From a virus: a DNA stretch of 33,147 nt. This document shows, piece after piece, positions 147 through 33,147 of the stretch (position 1 is its first letter; every line of letters starts with the position of its first letter). A program made the translations under genes and the position numbers. The notes beneath the pieces were generated by a model. It was given only the letters and a program-made list of their open reading frames with translations. It did no database searches and was not told the DNA's origin. The stretch is taken from the UHGV virus genome UHGV-0236124. One strand, 5' to 3'.

Positions 147-404
147 ATGAAGAAGTACCTGGGAGAGATGAAGCGTCTGGCTGATGGGGGAGAAATGAAT
201 TTTGATGGCTATCTGGATAAGATGTCACATCTGGTGAATGAAGGAACGCTCGATCCTGATATTTTAAGCAAAATGCGAGATGCTGCACCACAATTAATTA
301 GCTTCGCGAAGTCGTTTGACCCAACCTCAAAGGAAGAGATTAAAATACTTACAGACACTTCTAAATTAATTTATGATTTGTTCGGGGTTAAATCGGAGAA
401 ATAA
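147..404 (+). CDS. hypothetical small protein (85 aa)
   Basis: ORF track; ATG start; followed by hairpin plus T-run terminator at 446-473; no recognisable family. Confidence 0.4.
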   Translation: MKKYLGEMKRLADGGEMNFDGYLDKMSHLVNEGTLDPDILSKMRDAAPQLISFAKSFDPTSKEEIKILTDTSKLIYDLFGVKSEK

Positions 405-445
405 TATGTGAAGTTCTTCGATAGTATGGAAGGCATTATATAAAA

Positions 446-473
446 GGACCCAATATTTATTGGGTTCTTTTTT
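446..473 (+). terminator. rho-independent terminator candidate
   Basis: ggacccaat-att-attgggttc stem (one G-U wobble) followed by tttttt. Confidence 0.5.
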
Positions 474-1124
474 CTCTATCAATGCTATTAGCAGGGAGAT
501 ATATCACCAGAGTTTAATGTGTGATTTTTTATTTATCGTCGAACCTGGATTGTTTATCATTGGCCTTAACAAAGTTAACGGCTAATAAGATTATTTCCAT
601 CACTTCGTGAGAGCTTCATGCCTTGAGAGGATCTCAATTTTCTTTTGCAATGAGACAGGCGCTTCCTGTTGTTATGGTATAGTACCCCGCTATTGAGCCT
701 CCTGAATAGTGATGCTGAATAACATAACCCCATGATATATCGATAAAATAATCTCTACATTTGAAAATGCACGGTAATTCTGAAATGCAAAAAATCAACC
801 AAACCAGCGCAATGCCTGAAAAAACTGACGTTCACTGGAGTGGTCGGTTTAGCGTTGCACCAATGCTCGATAGGATGTACCGTTTTTGAAAAACAACTAG
901 TTATACACTTTGTGGGAGCCTATTGGGAACCTGTTATTCTTAGAAAGCATCATTTGCTCATCACTTCAATTGACCATGATTAAAGCCAGCTATAAACTTG
1001 ACAAACAAGGTAACTAGTTGCTTAGGCCTAAGTGGGCACACCATAAGAAGCTCATGTTGGTGATGAAGCAACCCATGAAGTATCGAGAATAATTACAAAG
1101 TTCACTATCTTTGAGGTTTCTTAT

Positions 1125-1697
1125 ATGTTTTGCGAAGAAAAAGTAGCTCAAATGGCTGCATACCTACTTCTTAAGCGAGGTGGGCGCATGGCATATCTGA
1201 AATTGATGAAGCTGCTCTATCTGTCTAACCGCAAGTCGATTTTGAAGCATGGCAGGATGATCGGCGAAGATAGCCTTTACTCTATGAAATTTGGTCCAGT
1301 CATGTCGAATACGCTGAACTTGATTCGTGGTAAGGCTGAAGGTATTGGTGACTACTGGTACAACCTGATAGAGACGAACGGGCATGATGTGTTGTTGCGT
1401 TCAGATCCGAGGGAAATGGATGCAGACGAGGTCTTTGATGAGTTGAGCCGTGCAGATATCCGGATTTTAGATGAAATCTATTCTCTGTATGGGCATATGA
1501 ACCGATTTGATCTCGCAAACATGACGCATTTAGAAAGCGTTTGTCCAGAGTGGCACAATCCTGGCAATTCTCGTAAGCCTATAGACCTGAAAGAAATGCT
1601 GATCAGTGAGGGTAAAAGCGAGGATGAGGCTAATCGTATAATTGGCAAAATGGAAGAATCTCAGAAACTTAAGGAATTTTCTTTGCAATTATCATGA
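1125..1697 (+). CDS. Panacea / DUF4065 domain protein (SocA/PanA-like antitoxin-type domain)
   Basis: 190 aa; stretch AYLLLKRGGRMAYLKLMKLLYLSNRKSILKHGRMIGEDSLYSMKFGPVMSNTL resembles DUF4065 as I recall it; stop overlaps next start (ATGA at 1694-1697). Confidence 0.6.
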   Translation: MFCEEKVAQMAAYLLLKRGGRMAYLKLMKLLYLSNRKSILKHGRMIGEDSLYSMKFGPVMSNTLNLIRGKAEGIGDYWYNLIETNGHDVLLRSDPREMDADEVFDELSRADIRILDEIYSLYGHMNRFDLANMTHLESVCPEWHNPGNSRKPIDLKEMLISEGKSEDEANRIIGKMEESQKLKEFSLQLS

Positions 1698-2113
1698 CGG
1701 ATTATCAGCCATACAGGAAAGGAACTGTGCTTGCCCCAACTGGGCCATGCAATCATCTTCATGTGATTTGTAATGATCCTGTTTATTACCCCGTTAACGA
1801 TTGTTATTGTGTTTTAGTTGTTAATATTTCTAGTATCAAGGATGGTGTCCCCCACGATCCGTCTTGCGTCTTGAATTCTGGTGATCATCGCTTTATCAAG
1901 CATCCAAGTTATGTTGTTTACGCTGAAGCTATAATTTGGCGAGTGGATAACATGGTTAGAAAGCAGCGATCGGGTGAGATTTCCGTTCATGATGATATGC
2001 CAGAAGCTACATTCAATAGAATTCTGGACGGTTTTGATATATCTGATGAAGTTACGCCAAAGAACCTTAAATTTAAAAATAAATATTGCGTATCATCTAT
2101 TGATGATGAGTAA
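1694..2113 (+). CDS. hypothetical protein translationally coupled to the Panacea-domain gene (candidate toxin/effector partner)
   Basis: 139 aa ORF; ATGA overlap with upstream gene; no recognisable domain. Confidence 0.5.
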   Translation: MTDYQPYRKGTVLAPTGPCNHLHVICNDPVYYPVNDCYCVLVVNISSIKDGVPHDPSCVLNSGDHRFIKHPSYVVYAEAIIWRVDNMVRKQRSGEISVHDDMPEATFNRILDGFDISDEVTPKNLKFKNKYCVSSIDDE

Positions 2114-2152
2114 ACAACAGGAATTGTTTCGGTATAGCTTCTGGAGTTTTCT

Positions 2153-2326
2153 ATGGAAGATCAAAAAGCAACCAAGCCACAGGTTAAGTTCGACACAATG
2201 AAAGCATTCGCAGGTATGGGGGCTGCTGTTGAAGTTCTGATGAAGGCTGCTCCTAATGCGTTCACTCACGCTACTGTCTCTGGTAAAGAGCAGCAGGGTA
2301 AGCTTCGTCGTCGCAAAGCAGCATGA
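2153..2326 (+). CDS. small protein (57 aa), third gene of the cassette
   Basis: Hand-translated (below the 60-aa cutoff of the ORF track): MEDQKATKPQVKFDTMKAFAGMGAAVEVLMKAAPNAFTHATVSGKEQQGKLRRRKAA; GGAG 6 nt upstream of ATG; terminator immediately downstream. Confidence 0.4.
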   Translation: MEDQKATKPQVKFDTMKAFAGMGAAVEVLMKAAPNAFTHATVSGKEQQGKLRRRKAA

Positions 2327-2345
2327 TCATAGCTGGTGCTTTTTG

Positions 2346-2372
2346 AAAACCCGCCTTTAGGCGGGTTTTTTC
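2346..2372. terminator. bidirectional rho-independent terminator between convergent genes
   Basis: aaaacccgcc-ttta-ggcgggtttttt; A-run on one side and T-run on the other, so it can terminate both the plus-strand cassette and the minus-strand gene ending at 2374. Confidence 0.6.
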
Positions 2373-2373
2373 T

Positions 2374-2655
2374 TTAGTGATGTTCTTTGCCCTTCTGTTT
2401 GCCTGTTCTGACCTGTTCCCACTCGATACGTCCTTCTTCTCGTCTTTTGTCTATGTATTCCGCAAGATCCTGAATATTGATGCAACGTTTTGCTTTTTGT
2501 GATGTACCGATGCGATATGTAGGTACAGGCAACTTACAAGCGTTTGCTTTTGCTTCTGCTGTGGCTGGACTCATACCAAAGTATTTTTGACTAACTGCTG
2601 AGAGTTCAATGTTTGGGGTATTGAATTCAGCCATCAGTAAAAACAAGGTATTCAT
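2374..2655 (-). CDS. excisionase-like / PrtN-family small DNA-binding protein
   Basis: 93 aa; N-terminus MNTLFLLMAEF... and KLPVPTYRIG motif are typical of PrtN/Xis-like phage proteins as I recall them. Confidence 0.55.
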   Translation of the reverse strand: MNTLFLLMAEFNTPNIELSAVSQKYFGMSPATAEAKANACKLPVPTYRIGTSQKAKRCINIQDLAEYIDKRREEGRIEWEQVRTGKQKGKEHH

Positions 2656-2691
2656 ATCATTTCTCCATCATAACCGGCTGCACCCGGTGAG

Positions 2692-3507
2692 TTACTTATT
2701 CATTTCAATAATATTATTTTCTATCATTGATTTATTTAAAACCAAAGAAGGAGCAAGATGGTTGTCTATTTTAAACAATGCATAACTTTTAAACTGTTGG
2801 TGATATCCGTAACTAATAAGGATGCTAGAAAAATCTCTTAATTCATCTTCTTTTAAAAAATTAAAATGAAATGGGTTGTCACCATTTATGAACAATGAAA
2901 CATCTATTATGCAGTATTTCTCTCCGTTGTCATTTGCATAGAAAAAAATATAAGACATTCTGTTTGTTAAGACAATGCCATTAAATTTTCTTATGTCTGT
3001 AGCTATTTTGTTTTCCATGTTTGGTGCTACATATTTATTTTCAGAAATACATTTAATTTCATCTCCAGATGTCGTGATTATATAAAAATGAAACTTATCA
3101 GAAATATCTAACTTAACTACGCCATCATTATTGTAAAGGCTGCTAAATTTTGGTGGTTCAACTTTTAAAGAATCATAGTTCTTTAAAAGAAGAGGAGAGT
3201 CAAATTTAATAACTTGTAGTATCCCTTTACCTTCAACCTCCATATTGATTGAAGATATAGCAATTGCATTATCTCTTTTATTATTCAGGATTATGGTTGA
3301 TATATGCATGTCATATATTCTACTTGCATTTGCTGAATACGACACTGTCACCTTTTTTGATATTTTTTGCACGCCAAAATATATAGTGAAGGCAGCGGCA
3401 AGAATAGATAAGAATTTAATGTCAAATAAGGACCATAGCCACATTAGTTGCTCAATTGCTTCAGAGTTAATCATTTGCTTTACCATTATCGCTGTAATAC
3501 AACACAT
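2692..3507 (-). CDS. AT-rich hypothetical membrane-anchored protein (moron)
   Basis: ORF 2692..3525; N-terminal hydrophobic helix LMWLWSLFDIKFLSILAAAFTIYFGV; strongly A+T-rich codon usage unlike neighbours; start uncertain (ATGs at 3507, 3486, 3474; the 3525 start is TTG); no clear SD. Confidence 0.5.
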   Translation of the reverse strand: MCCITAIMVKQMINSEAIEQLMWLWSLFDIKFLSILAAAFTIYFGVQKISKKVTVSYSANASRIYDMHISTIILNNKRDNAIAISSINMEVEGKGILQVIKFDSPLLLKNYDSLKVEPPKFSSLYNNDGVVKLDISDKFHFYIITTSGDEIKCISENKYVAPNMENKIATDIRKFNGIVLTNRMSYIFFYANDNGEKYCIIDVSLFINGDNPFHFNFLKEDELRDFSSILISYGYHQQFKSYALFKIDNHLAPSLVLNKSMIENNIIEMNK

Positions 3508-3628
3508 GTGTGTATATATACGCAATGCAATTATTTTGCAAGTGCTTCATTTACTATCAATAGCTACGTCACGTTATTGTTTAATGGTTCTTTATAGGGG
3601 CGGCAATAGTTAAAATTATCGCTTCCGT

Positions 3629-3650
3629 AAATGCCCCCGCAGGGGCATTT
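3629..3650. repeat. perfect GC-rich hairpin (9-bp stem aaatgcccc/ggggcattt, 4-nt loop) with no adjacent T-tract
   Basis: Read directly: aaatgcccccgcaggggcattt; lies just 3' of the YfdQ-like gene on the minus strand. Confidence 0.5.
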
Positions 3651-3662
3651 GCAGTAATGAAA

Positions 3663-4487
3663 TCAGGCGGTGAAAGTACCAATAAAGGTTTCTACTTTGC
3701 TGTCTTTGAATTTCTCAACAAGCAGATCACGAAATTCGTTAGCCATTTCTTCCTGTACCGCTTCCAGCTGAATAATGCGCAGAACCAGTACAGGACGATC
3801 GCCAGTGATAATGCTGAGGCGTAATTTAAACGGACGTTCTTTCAGACCTTCAAACGGAACGCATTTAAATTCAAATGCCACTGGCATAATGTCTTTGGTC
3901 TTCGCTTCGACAGACTCCATCAGGGAGCGTTTGCCGCTGAAGTCATTATCTTCAAAATCAGCGGTCTGGTTCGCTTCAATTGTGATTTTACGGATCGCCG
4001 CAGCCGCTTTGGTTGCCTGAATGGCGTCACCATTAGCATCAAAGCCCACAAGGTAGTCGGCCCAGTCTTCAATCCATTCTGCCAGTGACTTCTGGGAGTT
4101 ACGCTCGCCATTAACAGACAACAGAGCAGAGAACGGAGCTGTCTTTTTCAGTTTGAGAGTGGCGGTGTTATCTGCGTGACCTGGTTCATCAATAGTACCC
4201 AGGTTAAGAACACTGACGGCACGCATATTATCAGCATCGATAAAGCAGCGGGTGCCTTCATCTGCAAGATCTTTAGAATAACGAGTAAAGTCATCGATGC
4301 TGGCAGTGGAAAGCGCACCACGGAAACGGAAGCGATTTAAATTTAATTTTTCCAGATCATGAATGCGGAAATTCTCAGGCAATGCCACAGCATCGGCACC
4401 AATCTTACTGATAATTTCATTAACACCCTGAGCAGAAATAAGGGCATGGATTTGATTAATTGCGGTTGCGTCTAAGTTCTGAGACAT
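3663..4487 (-). CDS. yfdQ: YfdQ-like (DUF2303-type) prophage protein
   Basis: 274 aa, same length and similar sequence to CPS-53 YfdQ as I recall it; recollection-based. Confidence 0.55.
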
Positions 4488-4552
4488 AATAAGTCCTCAC
4501 TATATAAAGATATTCAGTGATGAGATAAATAATCGGTTAATTAAGAACGATA

Positions 4553-4915
4553 TTAATGACCTGCTGCGCGGAGTTTTCCGTCAGGTTCACCGGCAAGAGT
4601 CAGTAATTGTCCCTGGTCTTCCTGCAGAATAGTCAGGCGACCACCGCGATTGACATACATCGGCGTTTCGGTGGTGTCTTCTTCGGAAATTTTCCCGCGG
4701 TTAGTCGGGCGAACATATGAGAGTTTGTGTTTGATTTTCACACGGTTCTCATCAAATGGTTCGATTTCCAGGTTGAGTGAGACCTTACCTTTGGTTTTCG
4801 TGTTCATCACACCGGAAGCGACTTCACTGAGAACTGCGCCGATTTTGGTTTCAAATACGCCGCCGTCCAGCTCCCCAATAAATGCCTGCACATCAGTACT
4901 GCGTTCGCTAGCCAT
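4553..4915 (-). CDS. YfdP-like hypothetical protein (120 aa)
   Basis: Start moved to internal ATG (MASERSTDV...) which is preceded by AGGAGCAGCAAA; the longer ORF to 5101 has no RBS and runs into the GC-rich leader. Confidence 0.5.
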   Translation of the reverse strand: MASERSTDVQAFIGELDGGVFETKIGAVLSEVASGVMNTKTKGKVSLNLEIEPFDENRVKIKHKLSYVRPTNRGKISEEDTTETPMYVNRGGRLTILQEDQGQLLTLAGEPDGKLRAAGH

Positions 4916-5524
4916 TTTGCTGCTCCTAATCATATCGACCCTGCAAGGTCGGTTGGTTTCTCCACAAAACAGAGAAGAACACCTGCGGTGGCAGCCGCCC
5001 GGATGGATTTGGTTATGAGCCCGTCGTCCGGTGATGCTCTTCTCTGTTTTGTAAAAAGAGCGGTACCAGCCGGAAGCAAGTGTACAAACTGGTACCGCCA
5101 AAGCAGTGGCTGTTGTGGTGACCGGTGCTGATCTCCGGCTTGCGGTTATTTCAGACTCTCACGGGCGTTTAATTGCCCCGCCGAACAGCTCTTTTCCGCA
5201 TTAGCTGCAATGTCTTTCGCGCATCAGCCTGCGCATTCACCACAACGCTGAGAGCACTTAGCCAGTTACGGCACCACACTTTGTCGCGGTTCCATAAATG
5301 TCCTCATCGTTGCACCCTGGTCTCTTCCCAGGCGTCAAACCGAATCGCCACGCTGGTTAGGCGTCTTATCAGCATCATCATTGACTTGCACATTCCGGCT
5401 ACCTGGTTTGTTTGCCCGAGCAAGGAGTGGATTGTCCCCTTTAACGTCCCCAGACCGCTAACGACGCATGTGCCATACGCCGTGTTACAACCAAATTTTG
5501 TTTAATCTTGCCTGTGCTGTGTTT

Positions 5525-6598: not shown

Positions 6599-7162
6599 AT
6601 GAGGCTAACCGTGGGTAAGCATCACTGGAAAGTAGAAAAACAGCCTGAGTGGTACGTGAAAGCTGTCAGAAAAACTATCGCGGCGTTGCCGGGGGGTTAC
6701 GCTGAAGCTGCTGAGTGGCTGGATGTAACAGAGAACGCTTTATTCAACCGCCTTCGTGCAGATGGCGATCAGATTTTCCCGCTGGGATGGGCAATGGTTT
6801 TACAGCGCGCGGCTGGCACTCACTACATTGCGGATGCTGTCGCACAGTCTGCTGGTGGGGTGTTCGTATCGCTTCCTGAAATTGAGGAAGTAGAGAACGC
6901 CGATATAAACCAGCGCCTGCTGGAAGTCATCGAACAGATCGGGAGTTACTCAAAGCAGATTCGTTCGGCAATCGAAGATGGGGTAGTGGAGCCACACGAG
7001 CAGACAGCAATTAATGATGAGTTGTATCTGTCAATTTCGAAGCTCCAGGAGCATGCAGCACTGGTCTACAAAATCTTTTGCGCTCCAGAAAAGAGTGACG
7101 CCCGCGAGTGTGCAGCTCCGGGCGTCGTGGCGTTTTGTGTCTGTGGAGAAACTAACGCATGA
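6599..7162 (+). CDS. YdaT-like (CII-position) regulator-domain protein
   Basis: 187 aa immediately after the cro-like gene; sequence resembles the YdaT family as I recall it; stop overlaps next start. Confidence 0.55.
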   Translation: MRLTVGKHHWKVEKQPEWYVKAVRKTIAALPGGYAEAAEWLDVTENALFNRLRADGDQIFPLGWAMVLQRAAGTHYIADAVAQSAGGVFVSLPEIEEVENADINQRLLEVIEQIGSYSKQIRSAIEDGVVEPHEQTAINDELYLSISKLQEHAALVYKIFCAPEKSDARECAAPGVVAFCVCGETNA

Positions 7163-26433: not shown

Positions 26434-26771
26434 CGCGGGAAATGCAGTTTGTCATGCGGCTTGCCCGGGAGTTCCGGCGGGCAGACTGGCGGCGGATGCT
26501 GTCGGAAATGTCGGCCACTGAGCTTGGTGAGTGGGGCGATTATTTCCGGATGCAGAGCTTCAGTGATGTGTGGATGGATGCGCAGTTTGCCTCGCTGAAG
26601 GCATTGATCGTGAGAATGGTGTCCGGTAGCAGTGATGCTGCGGTGGCTGATTTCAGCCTTTTACCGGAAGAGAACGGGATACCGGAGCGAACGGACGAAG
26701 AACTGATGCATCTTGGGGAAGGTATTTCCGGAGGTGTGCGTTATGGACCAGATAGCCAACCTGGTCATTGA
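26044..26771 (+). CDS. tail assembly chaperone GT fusion via programmed -1 frameshift
   Basis: T frame (26442..26771 in the ORF track) is -1 relative to G and open back to 26409; slippery G GAA AAG at 26421-26427 at the end of G. Confidence 0.6.
26421..26427 (+). other. -1 ribosomal frameshift slippery site (G GAA AAG)
   Basis: A-site AAG to AAA re-pairing is possible; lambda uses G GGA AAG at the equivalent position. Confidence 0.5.
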
Positions 26772-29700
26772 TTTGGGGATTGATGCGGCAGAGTTTAAAA
26801 ATGAAATTCCCCGTATCAAAAACCTTCTGAATGGTGCAGCCAGCGATGCAGAACGGTCTTCTGCCCGTATGCAGCGTTTTATGGAGCGTCAGACTCAGGC
26901 CGCCCGGCAGACAACGCAGGCAGCTTCTTCGGCTGCAACAGCCGCATCCGTCCATGCGCAGACGGTGGAGAAGAACGCACAGGCTCATGAACGCATGGCC
27001 CGCGAGGTGGAGAAAACCCGCCAGCGCATGGAGGCACTGAGCCAGAAAATGCGCGAGGAACAGGCGCAGGCCATGGCTCTGGCGGAGGCTCAGGATAAAG
27101 CGGCTGCTGCGTTTTATCGTCAGATTGACAGTGTGAAACAGGCCAGTGCGGGGCTGCAGGAATTACAGCGTATTCAGCAGCAGATCCGACAGGCCAGAAA
27201 CAGTGGCGGGATTGGTCAGCAGGATTATCTGGCGCTGATTTCTGAGGTTACTGCGAAAACTCGTGTTCTTACACAGGCTGAGGAAGAGGCTACCCGACAG
27301 AAAGTGGCGTTTATCCGTCAGCTTAAAGAGCAGGCAACCCGCCAGAATCTTTCTTCTTCTGAGTTGCTTCGTGCTAAGGCTGCCCAGCTGGGGGTAAGCA
27401 GTGCTGCAGAAGTGTATATCCGCAAAATGGAGCAGGCAGGAAAAGCCACGCATTCGCTGGGTCTGAAAAGTGCAGCGGCCCGCCAGGAGATAGGCGTTCT
27501 GATAGGTGAACTGGCTCGCGGCAATTTAGGTGCGCTGAGGGGATCCGGGATAACGCTGGCTAACCGTGCCGGATGGATAGACACACTGATGTCACCGAAA
27601 GGCATGATGCTGGGCTGGGTTATTGGCGGTATTGCCGCGGCCGTCTATGGTCTGGGTAAAGCCTGGTATGATGGTCAGAAGGAGGGGGAAGAATTTAACC
27701 GCCAGTTGTCGCTGACGGGGCATTATGCCGGAGTCACTGCCGGGCAGCTGTGGACGCTCAGTCGTGCTATTTCCGGGAATGGTATCACGCAACATGCTGC
27801 AGCCGGTGCGCTGGCTCAGGTGGTGGGGAGTGGTGCATTTCGTGGAAACGATATCGGTATGGTGGCGAGAGCTGCCGCACAGATGGAGCGATCGGTTGGC
27901 CAGTCGGTCAGCGATACCATAAATCAGTTTAAGCGGCTGAAGGATGATCCTGTAAATGCCGCGAAGGCTCTGGACAATGAGCTGCATTTTCTTACTGCCA
28001 CTCAGCTTGAGCAGATACGTGTCCTTGGGGATCAGGGACGGTCCAGTGATGCTGCACGGATAGCCATGTCTGCACTGGCAGAGGAAACCGGTCGGCGTAC
28101 TGCGGATATTGATAATAACCTCAATGCGCTTGGCAGTACGCTGAAGTATCTGTCTGATTTGTGGAGTCGTTTCTGGGATGCGGCCATGAATATTGGTCGT
28201 GAAGACTCGCTGGATGAACAGATTGCCGCTTTACAGGAGAAAGTGTCGCGGGCGAAAAGACTCCCCTGGACGGCATCATCTTCTCAGGTTGAATACGATC
28301 AGCAGCGTCTTAACGATCTTCAGGAGAAAAAACGCCAGAAGGATTTGCAGGATGCAAAAGAGCAGGCAGAGCGGAATTATCAGGAGCAACAGAAACGACG
28401 TAATGCTGAAAATGCTGCACTGAACCGGATGAATGAAACGGAAGCAGCACGACATCAGCGTGAAATTGCGCGTATTAATGCCATGCAGTACGCCGACCAG
28501 GCTGTCAGGGATGCGGCGATACAACGTGAAAATGAACGTTACGAGAAAGCCCTGGCATCCGGTAAGAAAAAAACACGCGAAACCCGTAATGATGAGGCCA
28601 CCCGGTTATTGCTGCAGTACAGTCAGCAACAGGCACAGGTGGAAGGGCAGATTGCTGCTGCAAGACAGTCAGCAGGCATTGCCACTGAAAAGATGACAGA
28701 AGCGCATAAACAGCTTCTGGCTCTGCAGCAGCGCATCAGCGACCTGGACGGGAAAAAACTGACGGCAGATGAAAAGAGTGTGCTGGCCCGTAAAGATGAA
28801 CTGATTCAGGCACTGACGCTGCTGGATGTAAAACAGCAGGAGCTTCAGAAACAGACGGCACTCAACGAGCTGAAGAAAAAAACAATTCAGCTGACCAGTC
28901 AACTGGCTGAAGAAGAGCGCGCTCAGCGTCAGCAACATGACCTGGATATCGCCACGGTGGGTATGGGTGATCAGCAGAGGCAGCGATATCAGGTACAACT
29001 GAGTCTTCGCCAGAAATACCAGCAACAGCTGGAGCAGTTGAGGCGGGATAGTGAGCAGAAAGGGACATATAACACGGATGACTACAGAAAGGCCGAGCAG
29101 GCGCTGACGGAGAGCCTGAACCGACAACTGAATGAGAATCGCCGTTATTGGCAACAGCTTGAAATTGCTCAGGGTAACTGGAAAAACGGTGCTATGCGGG
29201 CGTTTCAGAATTTCACGGCAGATGCGGATAATGCGGCAGGCACTGCTGAGCAGATGCTTACAGCGGCATTTAACAGTGCAGGTAATGCACTGGCAACGTT
29301 CTGTACTACCGGAAAACTGAACTTCAAATCTTTTACCGCCTCGCTCCTTTCTGATCTGGCAAAAATCATGGCTCAGATGTCCATGATGCAGGCAGTTAAG
29401 GGGATTGGTTCGGCGTTTGGCTGGGGGAGTGCAGCAACTGCCAGTGTGACGCCCAATGCTGATGGTGGTGTTTATCAGTCTGCTGATTTGAGTCGCTACA
29501 GTGGCACGGTGGTTAACCGTCCGACGTTTTTTGCTTTTGCAAAAGGTGCAGGTGTGATGGGGGAAGCTGGGCCTGAAGCCATTCTGCCTCTGCGTCGTGG
29601 TGCTGACGGTAAGCTGGGGGTTGTGGCGGATATTGGTGGTTCAGGTATGGCGATGTTTGCCCCGCAGTACAACATCGAGATCAATAACGATGGCACGAAC

Positions 29701-29817
29701 GGGCAGATAGGTCCGGCTGCCCTGAAGGTGGTTTATGACCTCGGGAAAAAAGCAGCAGCGGACTTTATGCAACAGCAGGCCCGTGATGGTGGTCGGTTAA
29801 GTGGAGCATATCGGTAA
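26743..29817 (+). CDS. tail tape measure protein (H-like)
   Basis: about 1024 aa; GGAGGTG 6 nt upstream of ATG 26743; long Q/A/R-rich coiled-coil body; between GT and M. Confidence 0.85.
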   Translation: MDQIANLVIDLGIDAAEFKNEIPRIKNLLNGAASDAERSSARMQRFMERQTQAARQTTQAASSAATAASVHAQTVEKNAQAHERMAREVEKTRQRMEALSQKMREEQAQAMALAEAQDKAAAAFYRQIDSVKQASAGLQELQRIQQQIRQARNSGGIGQQDYLALISEVTAKTRVLTQAEEEATRQKVAFIRQLKEQATRQNLSSSELLRAKAAQLGVSSAAEVYIRKMEQAGKATHSLGLKSAAARQEIGVLIGELARGNLGALRGSGITLANRAGWIDTLMSPKGMMLGWVIGGIAAAVYGLGKAWYDGQKEGEEFNRQLSLTGHYAGVTAGQLWTLSRAISGNGITQHAAAGALAQVVGSGAFRGNDIGMVARAAAQMERSVGQSVSDTINQFKRLKDDPVNAAKALDNELHFLTATQLEQIRVLGDQGRSSDAARIAMSALAEETGRRTADIDNNLNALGSTLKYLSDLWSRFWDAAMNIGREDSLDEQIAALQEKVSRAKRLPWTASSSQVEYDQQRLNDLQEKKRQKDLQDAKEQAERNYQEQQKRRNAENAALNRMNETEAARHQREIARINAMQYADQAVRDAAIQRENERYEKALASGKKKTRETRNDEATRLLLQYSQQQAQVEGQIAAARQSAGIATEKMTEAHKQLLALQQRISDLDGKKLTADEKSVLARKDELIQALTLLDVKQQELQKQTALNELKKKTIQLTSQLAEEERAQRQQHDLDIATVGMGDQQRQRYQVQLSLRQKYQQQLEQLRRDSEQKGTYNTDDYRKAEQALTESLNRQLNENRRYWQQLEIAQGNWKNGAMRAFQNFTADADNAAGTAEQMLTAAFNSAGNALATFCTTGKLNFKSFTASLLSDLAKIMAQMSMMQAVKGIGSAFGWGSAATASVTPNADGGVYQSADLSRYSGTVVNRPTFFAFAKGAGVMGEAGPEAILPLRRGADGKLGVVADIGGSGMAMFAPQYNIEINNDGTNGQIGPAALKVVYDLGKKAAADFMQQQARDGGRLSGAYR

Positions 29818-30146
29818 TGGAGACGTTTCACTGGAAAGTGCGCCCGGATATGAATGTGGTATCAGAGCCGAAAGTGGTGACAGTGAAGCTGGGCGATGGT
29901 TATGAACAGCGTCGTGCGGCGGGACTGAATAACCAGTTGTCGACTTACAGCGTGACAATACGTGTTCGTAAATGTGAACACCCATCTTTAAAAGCCTTTC
30001 TGGAACGGCACGGTGGCGTCCGCGCATTTCAGTGGACGCCACCTTATGACTGGAAACCGATTAGGGTGGTTTGTCGTAAATGGTCGGCAAGCGTGGGGGC
30101 GCTGTGGGTAACCATAACGGCAGATTTTGAACAGGTCGTGGCATAG
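29817..30146 (+). CDS. minor tail protein M-like
   Basis: 109 aa as in lambda M; METFHWKVRPDMNVVSEPKV... Confidence 0.85.
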   Translation: METFHWKVRPDMNVVSEPKVVTVKLGDGYEQRRAAGLNNQLSTYSVTIRVRKCEHPSLKAFLERHGGVRAFQWTPPYDWKPIRVVCRKWSASVGALWVTITADFEQVVA

Positions 30147-30858: not shown

Positions 30859-31602
30859 ATGACAGAGACAGAATCAGCGATTCTGGCGCACGCCCGGCGA
30901 TGTGCGCCAGCGGAGTCGTGCGGCTTCGTGGTGAGAACGCCGGAGGGGGAAAGATATTTTCCCTGCGTGAATATCTCCGGTGAGCCGGAGGAGTATTTCC
31001 GGATGTCTCCGGAGGACTGGCTGCAGGCAGAAATGCAGGGTGAGATTGTGGCGCTGGTCCACAGTCACCCCGGTGGTCTGCCCTGGCTGAGTGAGGCCGA
31101 TCGGCGGCTGCAGGTGCAGAGTGATTTGCCGTGGTGGCTGGTCTGCCGGGGGGCGATTTACAAGTTCCGCTGTGTGCCACATCTTACCGGGCGGCGCTTT
31201 GAGCACGGGGTGACGGACTGTTACACGCTGTTCCGGGATGCTTACCATCTGGCGGGGATTGAGATGCCGGATTTTCATCGCGAGGATGACTGGTGGCGTA
31301 ACGGTCAGAATCTCTATCTGGATAATCTGGAGGCCACAGGGCTGTATCAGGTGCCGTTGTCAGCGGCGCAGCCGGGCGATGTGCTGCTGTGCTGTTTTGG
31401 TTCATCGGTGCCGAATCATGCCGCCATTTACTGTGGTGACGGCGAGCTGCTGCACCATATTCCTGAACAACTGAGCAAACGAGAGAGGTATACCGACAAA
31501 TGGCAGCGACGCACACACTCCCTCTGGCGTCACCGGGCATGGCACGCATCTGCCTTTACGGGGATTTACAACGATTTGGTCGCCGCATCGACCTTCGTGT
31601 GA
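30859..31602 (+). CDS. tail tip assembly protein K-like (MPN/JAMM plus NlpC/P60-like)
   Basis: ATG 5 nt after the L stop; JAMM motif HSHPGG...SEAD; C-terminal Cys/His; internal alternative start at 31003. Confidence 0.8.
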   Translation: MTETESAILAHARRCAPAESCGFVVRTPEGERYFPCVNISGEPEEYFRMSPEDWLQAEMQGEIVALVHSHPGGLPWLSEADRRLQVQSDLPWWLVCRGAIYKFRCVPHLTGRRFEHGVTDCYTLFRDAYHLAGIEMPDFHREDDWWRNGQNLYLDNLEATGLYQVPLSAAQPGDVLLCCFGSSVPNHAAIYCGDGELLHHIPEQLSKRERYTDKWQRRTHSLWRHRAWHASAFTGIYNDLVAASTFV

Positions 31603-32141
31603 AAACGGGGGCTGAAGCCATCCGGGCGCTGGCCACGCAGCTTCCGGCGTTTCGCCAGAAACTGAATGAGGGCTGGTATCAGGTGCGCATTTCCGGGCGT
31701 GATGCAGGCGAAAACGAATTATCTGCCCGTCTTAATGAGCCGCTGGCAAATGGTGCCGTGATCCACATCGTACCGCGTCTGGCGGGTGCCAAAAGTGGCG
31801 GTATTTTTCAGGCAGTGCTGGGTGCGGCGCTAATTGCTACGGCAATCTGGATGCCGGGGCTTAGTATTGTTGCAAGTAATCTCATGTTCTCTCTTGGGGC
31901 AGGTATGGTTTTAGGCGGTGTTGCGCAGATGCTGGCACCGAAAGCCAAAACGCCTAAAGTGTCAGCCACTGATAACGGTAAGCAAAATACCTATTTTTCC
32001 TCATTGGATAACATGGTTGCCCAGGGCAATGTCCTGCCTGTTCTGTACGGTGAAATGCGCGTTGGGTCACGTGTGGCATCTCAGGAGATCAGCACGGCAG
32101 ATGAAGGGGATGGTGGTCAGGTTGTGGTAATTGGGCGGTAA
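31500..32141 (+). CDS. tail tip assembly protein I-like
   Basis: 213 aa; MAATHTLPLASPGMARICLYGDLQRF... and C-terminal ...NTYFSSLDNMVAQGNVLPVLYGEMRVGSRV match lambda I; overlaps the K 3' end as in lambda. Confidence 0.85.
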   Translation: MAATHTLPLASPGMARICLYGDLQRFGRRIDLRVKTGAEAIRALATQLPAFRQKLNEGWYQVRISGRDAGENELSARLNEPLANGAVIHIVPRLAGAKSGGIFQAVLGAALIATAIWMPGLSIVASNLMFSLGAGMVLGGVAQMLAPKAKTPKVSATDNGKQNTYFSSLDNMVAQGNVLPVLYGEMRVGSRVASQEISTADEGDGGQVVVIGR

Positions 32142-32213
32142 TATTATTTACTCATGTTCTAACTGATTTAATATTTATATCGAACACTGATAATTATTCT
32201 GTTGGTTAGCTAT

Positions 32214-32552
32214 ATGAACAAAACGATTTTATTCTGCACGATTATTGCCTTAACAGGATGTAAATCTTTGGATTACGTAAAATCCGGCAAGCCTGTAATG
32301 GAAGGTAATTCATTAAAAAATATTGATGAATTGTCAGGCTGCATATCCAGACAATGGGCTGGTAATGGAACACCTATAACATCCATTCCTATTGAGAATG
32401 GGGTAAGCCTTTTAGTTCCACAGGCTATGGGTGGGTATGATGTTGTGCTTGATATCAAAAAAGCAGGAAATGGCAGTAGTTTTACTCTTTATGAACGCGT
32501 ACCAGCATTAACGCCAAAAATTTTTGCTGATAGTGTTAATGCATGTAAATAA
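32214..32552 (+). CDS. lipoprotein (moron between I and J)
   Basis: MNKTILFCTIIALTGCKS signal peptide with lipobox L-T-G-C; A+T-rich; own terminator downstream. Confidence 0.6.
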   Translation: MNKTILFCTIIALTGCKSLDYVKSGKPVMEGNSLKNIDELSGCISRQWAGNGTPITSIPIENGVSLLVPQAMGGYDVVLDIKKAGNGSSFTLYERVPALTPKIFADSVNACK

Positions 32553-32576
32553 TAGTTAATCCTGCCGTAACTCATG

Positions 32577-32604
32577 AGCCGCCTTTTGGGCGGCTTTGTT
32601 GTTT
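32577..32604 (+). terminator. intrinsic terminator after the I-J lipoprotein moron
   Basis: agccgcc-ttttg-ggcggct followed by ttgttgttt. Confidence 0.5.
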
Positions 32605-32618
32605 ATGGAGTGTGAGGA

Positions 32619-33147
32619 ATGGGTAAAGGTAGCAGTAAGGGGCATACCCCGCGCGAAGCGAAGGACAACCTGAAGTCCACGCAGTTGCTGAGTGTGATCG
32701 ATGCCATCAGCGAAGGGCCGATTGAAGGTCCGGTGGATGGATTAAAAAGCGTGCTGCTGAACAGTACGCCAGTGCTGGACAGTGAGGGGAATACCAATAT
32801 CTCCGGTGTCACGGTGGTGTTCCGGGCCGGTGAGCAGGAGCAGACACCGCCGGAGGGATTTGAATCCTCTGGCTCCGAGACGGTGCTGGGTACGGAAGTG
32901 AAATACGACACGCCGATCACCCGGACCATCACGTCGGCAAACATTGACCGACTGCGTTTTACCTTCGGCGTGCAGGCACTGGTGGAAACCACCTCAAAGG
33001 GGGACAGGAATCCGTCGGAAGTCCGCCTGCTGGTTCAGATCCAGCGTAATGGTGGCTGGGTGACGGAAAAAGACATCACCATTAAGGGCAAAACCACCTC
33101 GCAGTATCTGGCCTCGGTGGTGGTGGGTAACCTGCCGCCGCGCCCGT
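32619..33147 (+). CDS. host specificity / central tail fibre protein J, 5' part (truncated by window end)
   Basis: MGKGSSKGHTPREAKDNLKSTQLLSVIDAISEGPIEGPVDGLKSVLLNSTPVLD... matches the lambda J N-terminus as I recall it; runs off the window. Confidence 0.9.
   Translation, partial: MGKGSSKGHTPREAKDNLKSTQLLSVIDAISEGPIEGPVDGLKSVLLNSTPVLDSEGNTNISGVTVVFRAGEQEQTPPEGFESSGSETVLGTEVKYDTPITRTITSANIDRLRFTFGVQALVETTSKGDRNPSEVRLLVQIQRNGGWVTEKDITIKGKTTSQYLASVVVGNLPPRP

Follow-up and report, generated by a model that had tools for sequence, protein, structure and literature searches.

An uncharacterised, widespread lipoprotein moron family in the tail operons of Enterobacteriaceae prophages

What is a small lipoprotein gene doing between tail genes I and J of a lambdoid prophage, and is it matched to the specificity of the adjoining J protein? 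The question is raised by the virus genome UHGV-0236124, a stretch of 33,147 nucleotides (the window, in what follows) that covers the greater part of a dusA-integrated lambdoid prophage and is 100% identical to a prophage of Escherichia coli strain YJ3. An earlier note on this DNA had read the gene as an accessory gene (moron) whose product, in the manner of Cor and Llp, may exclude superinfecting phages according to the specificity of J. Our analyses make it highly probable that the gene is at once real, mobile and uncoupled from the receptor-binding domain of J. What is new here is an uncharacterised, widespread family of lipoprotein morons in Enterobacteriaceae tail operons, envelope morons as such being already known. 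Superinfection exclusion by the lipoprotein is, judged by its analogues, a reasonable hypothesis.

The relation to J was examined in 36 insert-bearing loci with a complete J. The 36 J proteins fall into four C-terminal types, A-D, which are 88-98% identical over the first 900 amino acids and 15-60% identical over the last 130, that is, the receptor-binding part; across the types these last 130 residues share 22-42% identity with those of lambda J. The J protein of the window's own prophage, 1165 amino acids long in the identical YJ3 prophage, is of type B, with its last 130 residues 35% identical to the lambda domain. The reference lipoprotein allele is found with J types A, B and C, and the commonest variant, I58L, with all four types. 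The receptor-binding domain is exchanged next to a lipoprotein that stays conserved, and the idea of a match to J specificity has to be given up.

The open reading frame at 32214-32552 is, judging from its conservation, a genuine gene and no chance reading frame, because its product matches PHROG 914 (a family of unknown function) end to end (E 5.7e-33, residues 1-112 on profile positions 1-118 of 118), an exhaustive profile search recovers 116 representative homologue clusters at E<=1e-3, nearly all 105-125 amino acids long, and three cysteines are invariant. The coordinates, the length of 112 amino acids and the LTGC lipobox had all been given correctly in the earlier note, as the sequence, the open reading frame list and PHROG 914 confirm. 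All 60 aligned relatives match PHROG 914 as well, and at least 1000 contigs carry the exact protein sequence. Alignments of 53 and 60 members show no variation at the lipobox cysteine, Cys43 and Cys111 and hardly any at Pro27, Trp48 and Gly63, these motifs and cysteines being retained among relatives down to 20-30% identity. A match to P0030 (1047 amino acids, five matched stretches), a repetitive Thr/Ser-rich protein, was set aside as spurious.

The N-terminus of the protein reads MNKTILFCTIIALTGC followed by KSLD, with a signal peptide (residues 1-15) composed of a positive n-region, a hydrophobic h-region and the lipobox LTGC, which conforms to the pattern [LVI][ASTVI][GAS]C. A lipobox-type motif is present in 53 of 53 aligned relatives when the pattern is broadened, or takes the form LMGC, as in Fraca and LMessi. 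The lipobox cysteine, Cys16, is encoded at 32259-32261 and is followed by lysine at position +2; across the 53 relatives this position holds A, K, T, S, V, G, E, L or I, and Asp in none. According to the Lol-avoidance rule of E. coli, Asp at +2 retains a lipoprotein, and a lipoprotein without it proceeds to the outer membrane. Lipidation is predicted from the signal, and an outer-membrane location from the lack of Asp at +2 in the window protein and its aligned relatives. The mature domain of 97 amino acids, with its conserved Cys43 and Cys111, is predicted by AlphaFold2 to have the same topology whether 8 sequences (pLDDT 82) or 60 sequences (pLDDT 90.5) are supplied: after the signal peptide, a short helix leads into a single strand and a long helix, and four further strands precede the C-terminal helix. 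The model places Cys43 and Cys111 on the two long helices, which suggests that a disulfide between them probably staples the compact alpha/beta domain.

Database comparisons add little to this picture. No Pfam family matches the window lipoprotein at E<=1, the sole NCBIfam match is VirB7 (E 0.08, signal peptide alone), the PADLOC-DB 2.0 defence models give 0 families at E<=1, and a profile search of PDB sequences gives 0 matches. Foldseek finds nothing in the PDB at E<=1e-3; the closest solved fold is that of the Francisella lipoprotein Flpp3 (E-value 1e-2). With this protein (DUF3568) and with the N-terminal domain of BamC, the likeness is one of fold only, at 6-10% identity and with no sequence-level relationship. 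A structure search of BFVD returned an uncharacterised Pseudomonas phage protein as its only match. The exact and related proteins are called 'hypothetical protein', 'phage protein' or 'lipoprotein' in their sources, and no specific account of the gene or the family was found in the literature.

That the gene is an insertion follows from comparison with lambda, Tritos and PhiR40_1, which served as empty-site references. The lambda I-J spacer measures 60 bp (15445-15504) and is free of a lipoprotein gene, in keeping with the earlier remark that J follows I in lambda with only a short gap; the spacers of Tritos and PhiR40_1 are likewise 60 bp long and without the insert. In the window, 477 bases separate the stop codon of I (TAA, 32139-32141) from the start codon of J (ATG, 32619). 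This agrees with the figure of about 480 bp previously given for the insertion, but homology to lambda ends right after the I stop codon and resumes at ~32572-32576 in the alignment, so the DNA that is truly extra amounts to just ~430 bp (~32142-32572), in place of ~25 bp. Its A+T-richness is evident, too, with a GC content of 0.345-0.415 over 32100-32600 against 0.53-0.62 in I and J (flanks ~0.55). An empty site for the closest I alleles was also sought with a moron-deleted junction as the query, and all top matches retain the insert. The junction is made up as follows.

31539-32141, + strand: gene I, tail assembly, the upstream neighbour (start as in the RefSeq annotation of the identical YJ3 DNA; product matching Pfam Lambda_tail_I at E 1.7e-23 and sharing 78% amino acid identity with lambda I)
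32142-32213, + strand: A+T-rich leader of the insert, 72 nt (from the sequence; no homology with the lambda spacer)
32214-32552, + strand: lipoprotein gene, 112 amino acids plus stop (open reading frame list, PHROG 914, family alignments, AlphaFold2)
32553-32575, + strand: 3' end of the inserted DNA, without a lambda counterpart (alignments with lambda, Tritos and PhiR40_1)
32576-32606, + strand: terminator-like hairpin GAGCCGCC TTTT GGGCGGCTT and T-rich tail (terminator scan; insert-free spacers)
32607-32618, + strand: J ribosome-binding region with GAGG at 32614-32617, near-identical in lambda and common to both
32619-33147, + strand: 5' part of J, the tail-tip/host-specificity gene, extending past the window (Pfam FNIII-A_GpJ; YJ3 locus)

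The gene has two marks of a moron: it sits between genes that are adjacent in related phages, and its base composition is unlike that of its neighbours. Its absence from the lambda junction, low GC and mobile accessory behaviour bear out the moron reading. Of 5426 complete E. coli genomes, 334 (6%) carry the insert and ~4200 have a lambda-type I-J junction, and the prophage occurs in human, livestock and bird isolates; a 561-bp segment has no DNA-level match in any deposited phage genome. In 58 IMG/VR loci, I and J are separated by a gene whose full-length product is at least 98% identical to the window protein. The tape-measure proteins of these loci are often just 24-27% identical to that of the window and their M proteins 54-57%, which places the same lipoprotein gene in mosaic backgrounds. 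As prophages with near-identical K, I, lipoprotein and J N-terminus differ in this way in M (window 29817-30146) and in the tape-measure protein H (window 26713-29817), the L-K-I-lipoprotein block has mosaic breakpoints close by on either side.

More distant homologues (22-58% identity) are mostly found at sites other than I-J. The family is nearly confined to the tail operons of siphophages with a lambda-type tip (M-L-K-I-J). Homologues occupy the K-I junction in the phages Fraca and LMessi, in a Kluyvera prophage and in loci L068, L076, L077, L079, L087 and L090. The G/T-H junction, between the G/T chaperone and tape-measure genes, is used in Enterobacter/Citrobacter-type prophages, including P0009, whose protein is 50% identical. 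In L082, the gene lies directly between K and a putative J gene, its start overlapping the stop of K. A search of species-representative genomes with a narrow alignment gave one locus only, in Kluyvera; some short metagenomic contigs yielded no context that could serve the comparison. With divergent homologues usually at K-I or G/T-H, and one on a chromosome, adjacency to J loses the value as a clue to function that the earlier note had seen in it.

The chromosomal homologue (CP001560.1; loci L080 and L081, 5001-5339) is 38% identical and lies outside any prophage, between a yidB-like gene and the ecotin gene, in a genome that we take to be that of Shimwellia blattae. Its neighbourhood comprises copC/copD/yebY, the yidB-like gene, ecotin and an ABC transporter. 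With a GC matching that of the DNA around it, this copy may stand for the cellular gene from which the phage family arose. In eight other, prophage contexts, the GC of the gene is below that of its flanks, in most of them markedly so (0.38-0.43 vs 0.50-0.54), prophage copies ranging overall from 0.35 to 0.43; this lower GC fits a mobile accessory gene.

Several observations concern the DNA next to family members. A conserved partner gene was sought, but the small open reading frames beside the homologues in Fraca/LMessi, L087 and L079 are mutually unrelated. The family member of LMessi is directly preceded, within the K-I interval, by a second, unrelated lipoprotein frame beginning MRKFLSILACSLIIVGC (L004, 5647-5994); the same frame in Fraca (L003, 5725-5994) is annotated from an internal start, without the signal peptide. 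Two metagenomic loci (L087 and L088, ~400-4950) have a ~4.5-kb block between K and the lipoprotein-I-J genes with genes for Arc-like repressors and for Bro-N, KilA-N/ANT or pRha-type antirepressors, which looks like an immI-like regulatory region within a tail operon. Four insert-bearing IMG/VR loci (L014, L016, L019 and L025) have ~1.5-1.7 kb of extra DNA between L and K, according to tblastn coordinates. Finally, phage mEp021 carries an annotated HNH endonuclease gene between I and J (L091, 3959-4525), so the I-J junction takes unrelated insertions in another phage group, too.

The earlier note had further credited the insert with its own terminator, and here the comparison with empty sites leads to a different view. 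The hairpin at 32576-32596 (GAGCCGCC-TTTT-GGGCGGCTT, followed by a T-rich tail in the terminator scan) lies in a 58-nt stretch that folds at -22 kcal/mol (z -3.6), and it aligns base for base with a hairpin in the insert-free spacers of lambda, Tritos and PhiR40_1. The lambda counterpart at the same place reads AACCGCC-TGCG-GGCGGTT-TTGTCATTT, one stem pair differing by a compensatory G:C to A:T change. HK97-like phages that have the lipoprotein gene elsewhere also carry a hairpin and T-run in their I-J spacer. Because homologous hairpins are present in insert-free spacers, the hairpin is, by this alignment, a resident feature of the I-J junction rather than something brought by the insert, and the gene landed just 5' of it. 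Rfam gave sub-threshold chance matches only.

Whichever of the three junction types it occupies, each family copy examined has a hairpin and T-run no more than 10-30 nt downstream, beyond which the next tail gene begins. A GC hairpin with T-run, then TATGG and the J start, is kept in lambda-like and HK97-like I-J spacers with or without the lipoprotein gene (L002, that is lambda, ~766-790; L003, Fraca, 7009-7035; also L005, L008, L076 and L090). Such a terminator-like element just before J in a late tail operon might attenuate transcription, stabilise the mRNA or serve as a joint for recombination. In Fraca, the hairpin that follows the lipoprotein gene (L003, 6354-6373, AAGCCACCttcgGGTGGCTTTTTTTATGGAG) is a near-duplicate of the one in the I-J spacer (~7010-7029, AAGCCACCcccgGGTGGCTTTTTTTATGGGC), a resemblance suggesting that the gene moves together with hairpins or recombines at them. 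The hairpins may thus act as joints for the shuffling of the lipoprotein gene.

Precedents for an exclusion function come from tail-region prophage lipoproteins, as Cor, Llp and Lpp010 exclude phages (PMC11893012; PMC9586334), and kinship with Cor and Llp had been proposed for the window protein. The similarity searches, however, aligned the signal peptide and lipobox only. In profile-profile comparisons (hhalign), Cor of Fraca aligns over 29 columns covering the signal peptide, the lipobox and few residues beyond, with no mature-domain similarity, T5 Llp (query sequence 100% identical to T5) over 23 columns of signal peptide only, and the mEpimmI lipoproteins Lpp010 and Lpp021 (type A and type C) over 17 and 20 columns, again of signal peptide only. 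The window protein has no match to PHROG 1119 (Cor), which just two of 60 family members touch at E ~5e-4. The PDB includes structures of the Llp-FhuA complex, but no Llp chain is among the listed Foldseek matches. By these comparisons, the lipoprotein family belongs to no characterised exclusion family.

Parallels of another kind do exist. The FhuA-blocking proteins Cor (phi80, N15, HK022, mEp167; PHROG 1119) and T5 Llp are likewise small phage lipoproteins with outer-membrane sorting signals, encoded in the tail/host-recognition region. Relative to them, the mature domain described here is larger (97 amino acids vs roughly 60) and has a different alpha/beta fold, and its gene lies upstream of J or farther off, whereas cor lies downstream of J. 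Fraca carries a PHROG 914 member and cor together, so that in this phage, at least, the family is not simply the Cor equivalent. Lpp010 and Lpp021 resemble the window gene in being encoded in the structural cluster of temperate coliphages with M-L-K-I-J tips, and differ from it in their size of 82 and 72 amino acids and in the position of their genes downstream of J on the opposite strand; the compared exclusion-lipoprotein precursors (Cor, Llp, Lpp010 and Lpp021) all fall within 72-82 amino acids. Expression of Lpp010 or Lpp021 from a plasmid excludes the cognate phages, and Lpp010 excludes lambda as well, while no lipoprotein from a lambdoid phage has been reported to exclude lambda (PMC11893012).

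A different precedent is the moron gene 15 of HK97, a proven exclusion gene in the G/T-H slot (PMC3594210). Its YebO-like product, gp15, is likewise encoded by a small envelope-targeted accessory gene between essential siphophage tail genes, the slot between the G/T chaperone and tape-measure genes is exactly that of the P0009 branch, and both gp15 and the window family have chromosomal relatives outside prophages. Exclusion by gp15 depends on the tail region of the incoming phage and does not block the receptor, and a gp15-like receptor-independence would also suit the lack of linkage to the J domain seen here. Unlike the window protein, gp15 is an inner-membrane protein and no lipoprotein, and the two have no sequence relationship.

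By analogy with these systems, the reading to which we lean, if with slightly less than even confidence, is an envelope-level block to other phages that is independent of the J receptor-binding domain. The gene is inserted in the I-J spacer of the prophage, just 5' of the resident hairpin, and the precursor would follow the standard pathway of Sec export, lipidation at Cys16, cleavage by signal peptidase II and Lol delivery to the outer membrane. There the lipoprotein would block other phages at the envelope, or protect progeny; since the gene is not tied to any one J receptor-binding domain, such a block would concern a conserved step, or one that does not depend on the receptor, and not the receptor of the neighbouring J. 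Its lipidation, outer-membrane placement, expression and any anti-phage activity we infer.

Signals for expression bear on several of the alternatives. A promoter scan found no sigma-70 consensus promoter on the + strand upstream of the lipoprotein gene in the window, and scans in three other contexts yielded none, or chance-level numbers only; by eye, the leader offers at best GATAAT at 32189-32194, which resembles a -10 element but has a poor -35. The window gene has a weak Shine-Dalgarno sequence. In the Enterobacter-type copy (L005, L069), a GGAGGT Shine-Dalgarno could, by eye, pair with ACCTCC seven bases upstream, ~30 nt before the start, and this pairing could form a candidate translation-masking hairpin.

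Best placed among the alternatives, though unlikely in our estimate, is a lysogenic-conversion factor that serves the bacterium, for example in serum/complement resistance, envelope stress tolerance or colonisation, like lambda Bor and Lom. Lambdoid prophages do carry envelope morons such as bor (PMC3594210), and in the identical prophage of YJ3 lom itself follows closely on J. The chromosomal non-prophage homologue, the occurrence in human, livestock and bird isolates and the closest solved fold, Flpp3, a 'virulence determinant' according to its PDB entry, all point the same way. Lambda Bor/Iss is, moreover, an outer-membrane lipoprotein moron of lambdoid prophages like the window gene, but its gene lies near the lysis genes, outside the tail operon, and the window protein has no similarity to Bor in that no Pfam family matches it (Pfam presumably includes the Lambda_Bor model). 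The absence of an evident promoter and the striking confinement of the family to tail operons of one tip type, when morons usually sit near lysis or immunity genes, also speak against conversion.

We consider it rather unlikely that the protein acts late in the lytic cycle together with the tail genes, for instance by covering receptors or envelope fragments and so sparing released progeny from loss on debris, or by assisting release. The former has been proposed as a second role of T5 Llp. The position of the gene on the same strand inside the late operon without a consensus promoter, the short or overlapping gap to K (L008 and L082) and the start of the next tail gene at once after the lipoprotein gene would all be accounted for. 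Most lambda-type phages lack the gene, however, a terminator-like hairpin follows every copy, and persistently low GC with patchy presence among near-identical prophages marks a dispensable accessory gene.

A decidedly unlikely possibility is that a periplasm-facing lipoprotein intercepts a conserved component of the incoming tail tip instead of the receptor. Candidate targets would be the NlpC/P60-JAB protein K, in an effector-immunity-like relationship, or the ejected I or H proteins; K is the gene that most often directly precedes a family member. T4 Spackle and HK97 gp15 follow a similar logic, and the resulting exclusion would not depend on the receptor-binding domain of J.

We give very little credence to a Cor/Llp-type plug of the receptor used by the adjacent J and co-inherited with J specificity. 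The outer-membrane sorting signal, the place next to the host-specificity gene and the precedent of Cor, Llp and Lpp010/Lpp021 would suit it; it is contradicted by identical alleles beside four J domains with just 15-60% identity in their last 130 amino acids, by homologues usually away from J (at K-I or G/T-H), by the presence of cor in Fraca as well, by the lack of mature-domain similarity to Cor, Llp, Lpp010 and Lpp021, and by the position of the gene upstream of J, where cor, lpp010 and lpp021 are all downstream. That the gene is a functionless remnant, decaying or unexpressed, is extremely improbable: the weak Shine-Dalgarno, the missing promoter and a few frameshifted or truncated copies (P0002, P0013, L065-L067) would agree with it, but the protein is conserved at 98% amino acid identity or more across dozens of mosaic prophage backgrounds, its exact sequence recurs on at least 1000 contigs, its motifs and cysteines persist down to 20-30% identity and its fold is confidently predicted.

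The rest of the prophage has its own accessory genes. A Panacea-domain protein is encoded near the left end (window 1125-1697) and a DNA methyltransferase before the lysis genes (window 14119-15171); beyond the window, the YJ3 prophage has a reverse transcriptase and SLATT-domain pair beside the integrase, possibly a defence system (L092, 20808-22707).

Returning to the envelope-level block that we favour, phage envelope lipoproteins are among the simplest ways in which a resident phage alters which phages infect its host. To our knowledge, the characterised examples, Cor, Llp and Lpp010/021, are all receptor-matched and encoded beside the receptor-binding gene. The present family, common in being carried by 6% of complete E. 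coli genomes and found also in Enterobacter, Citrobacter, Kluyvera and more distant bacteria, is set apart from them by its sequence, its fold, its three tail-operon junctions and the absence of coupling to a receptor domain. If it excludes phages, its logic would differ from that of the receptor-matched lipoproteins and would fill a gap stated in the literature (PMC11893012); should it do so by intercepting a tail component, it would be the first lambdoid lipoprotein shown to exclude lambda-type phages, and by a new exclusion mechanism. If it excludes none, E. coli from clinical and livestock sources would carry in it a lysogenic-conversion factor that has so far escaped notice.
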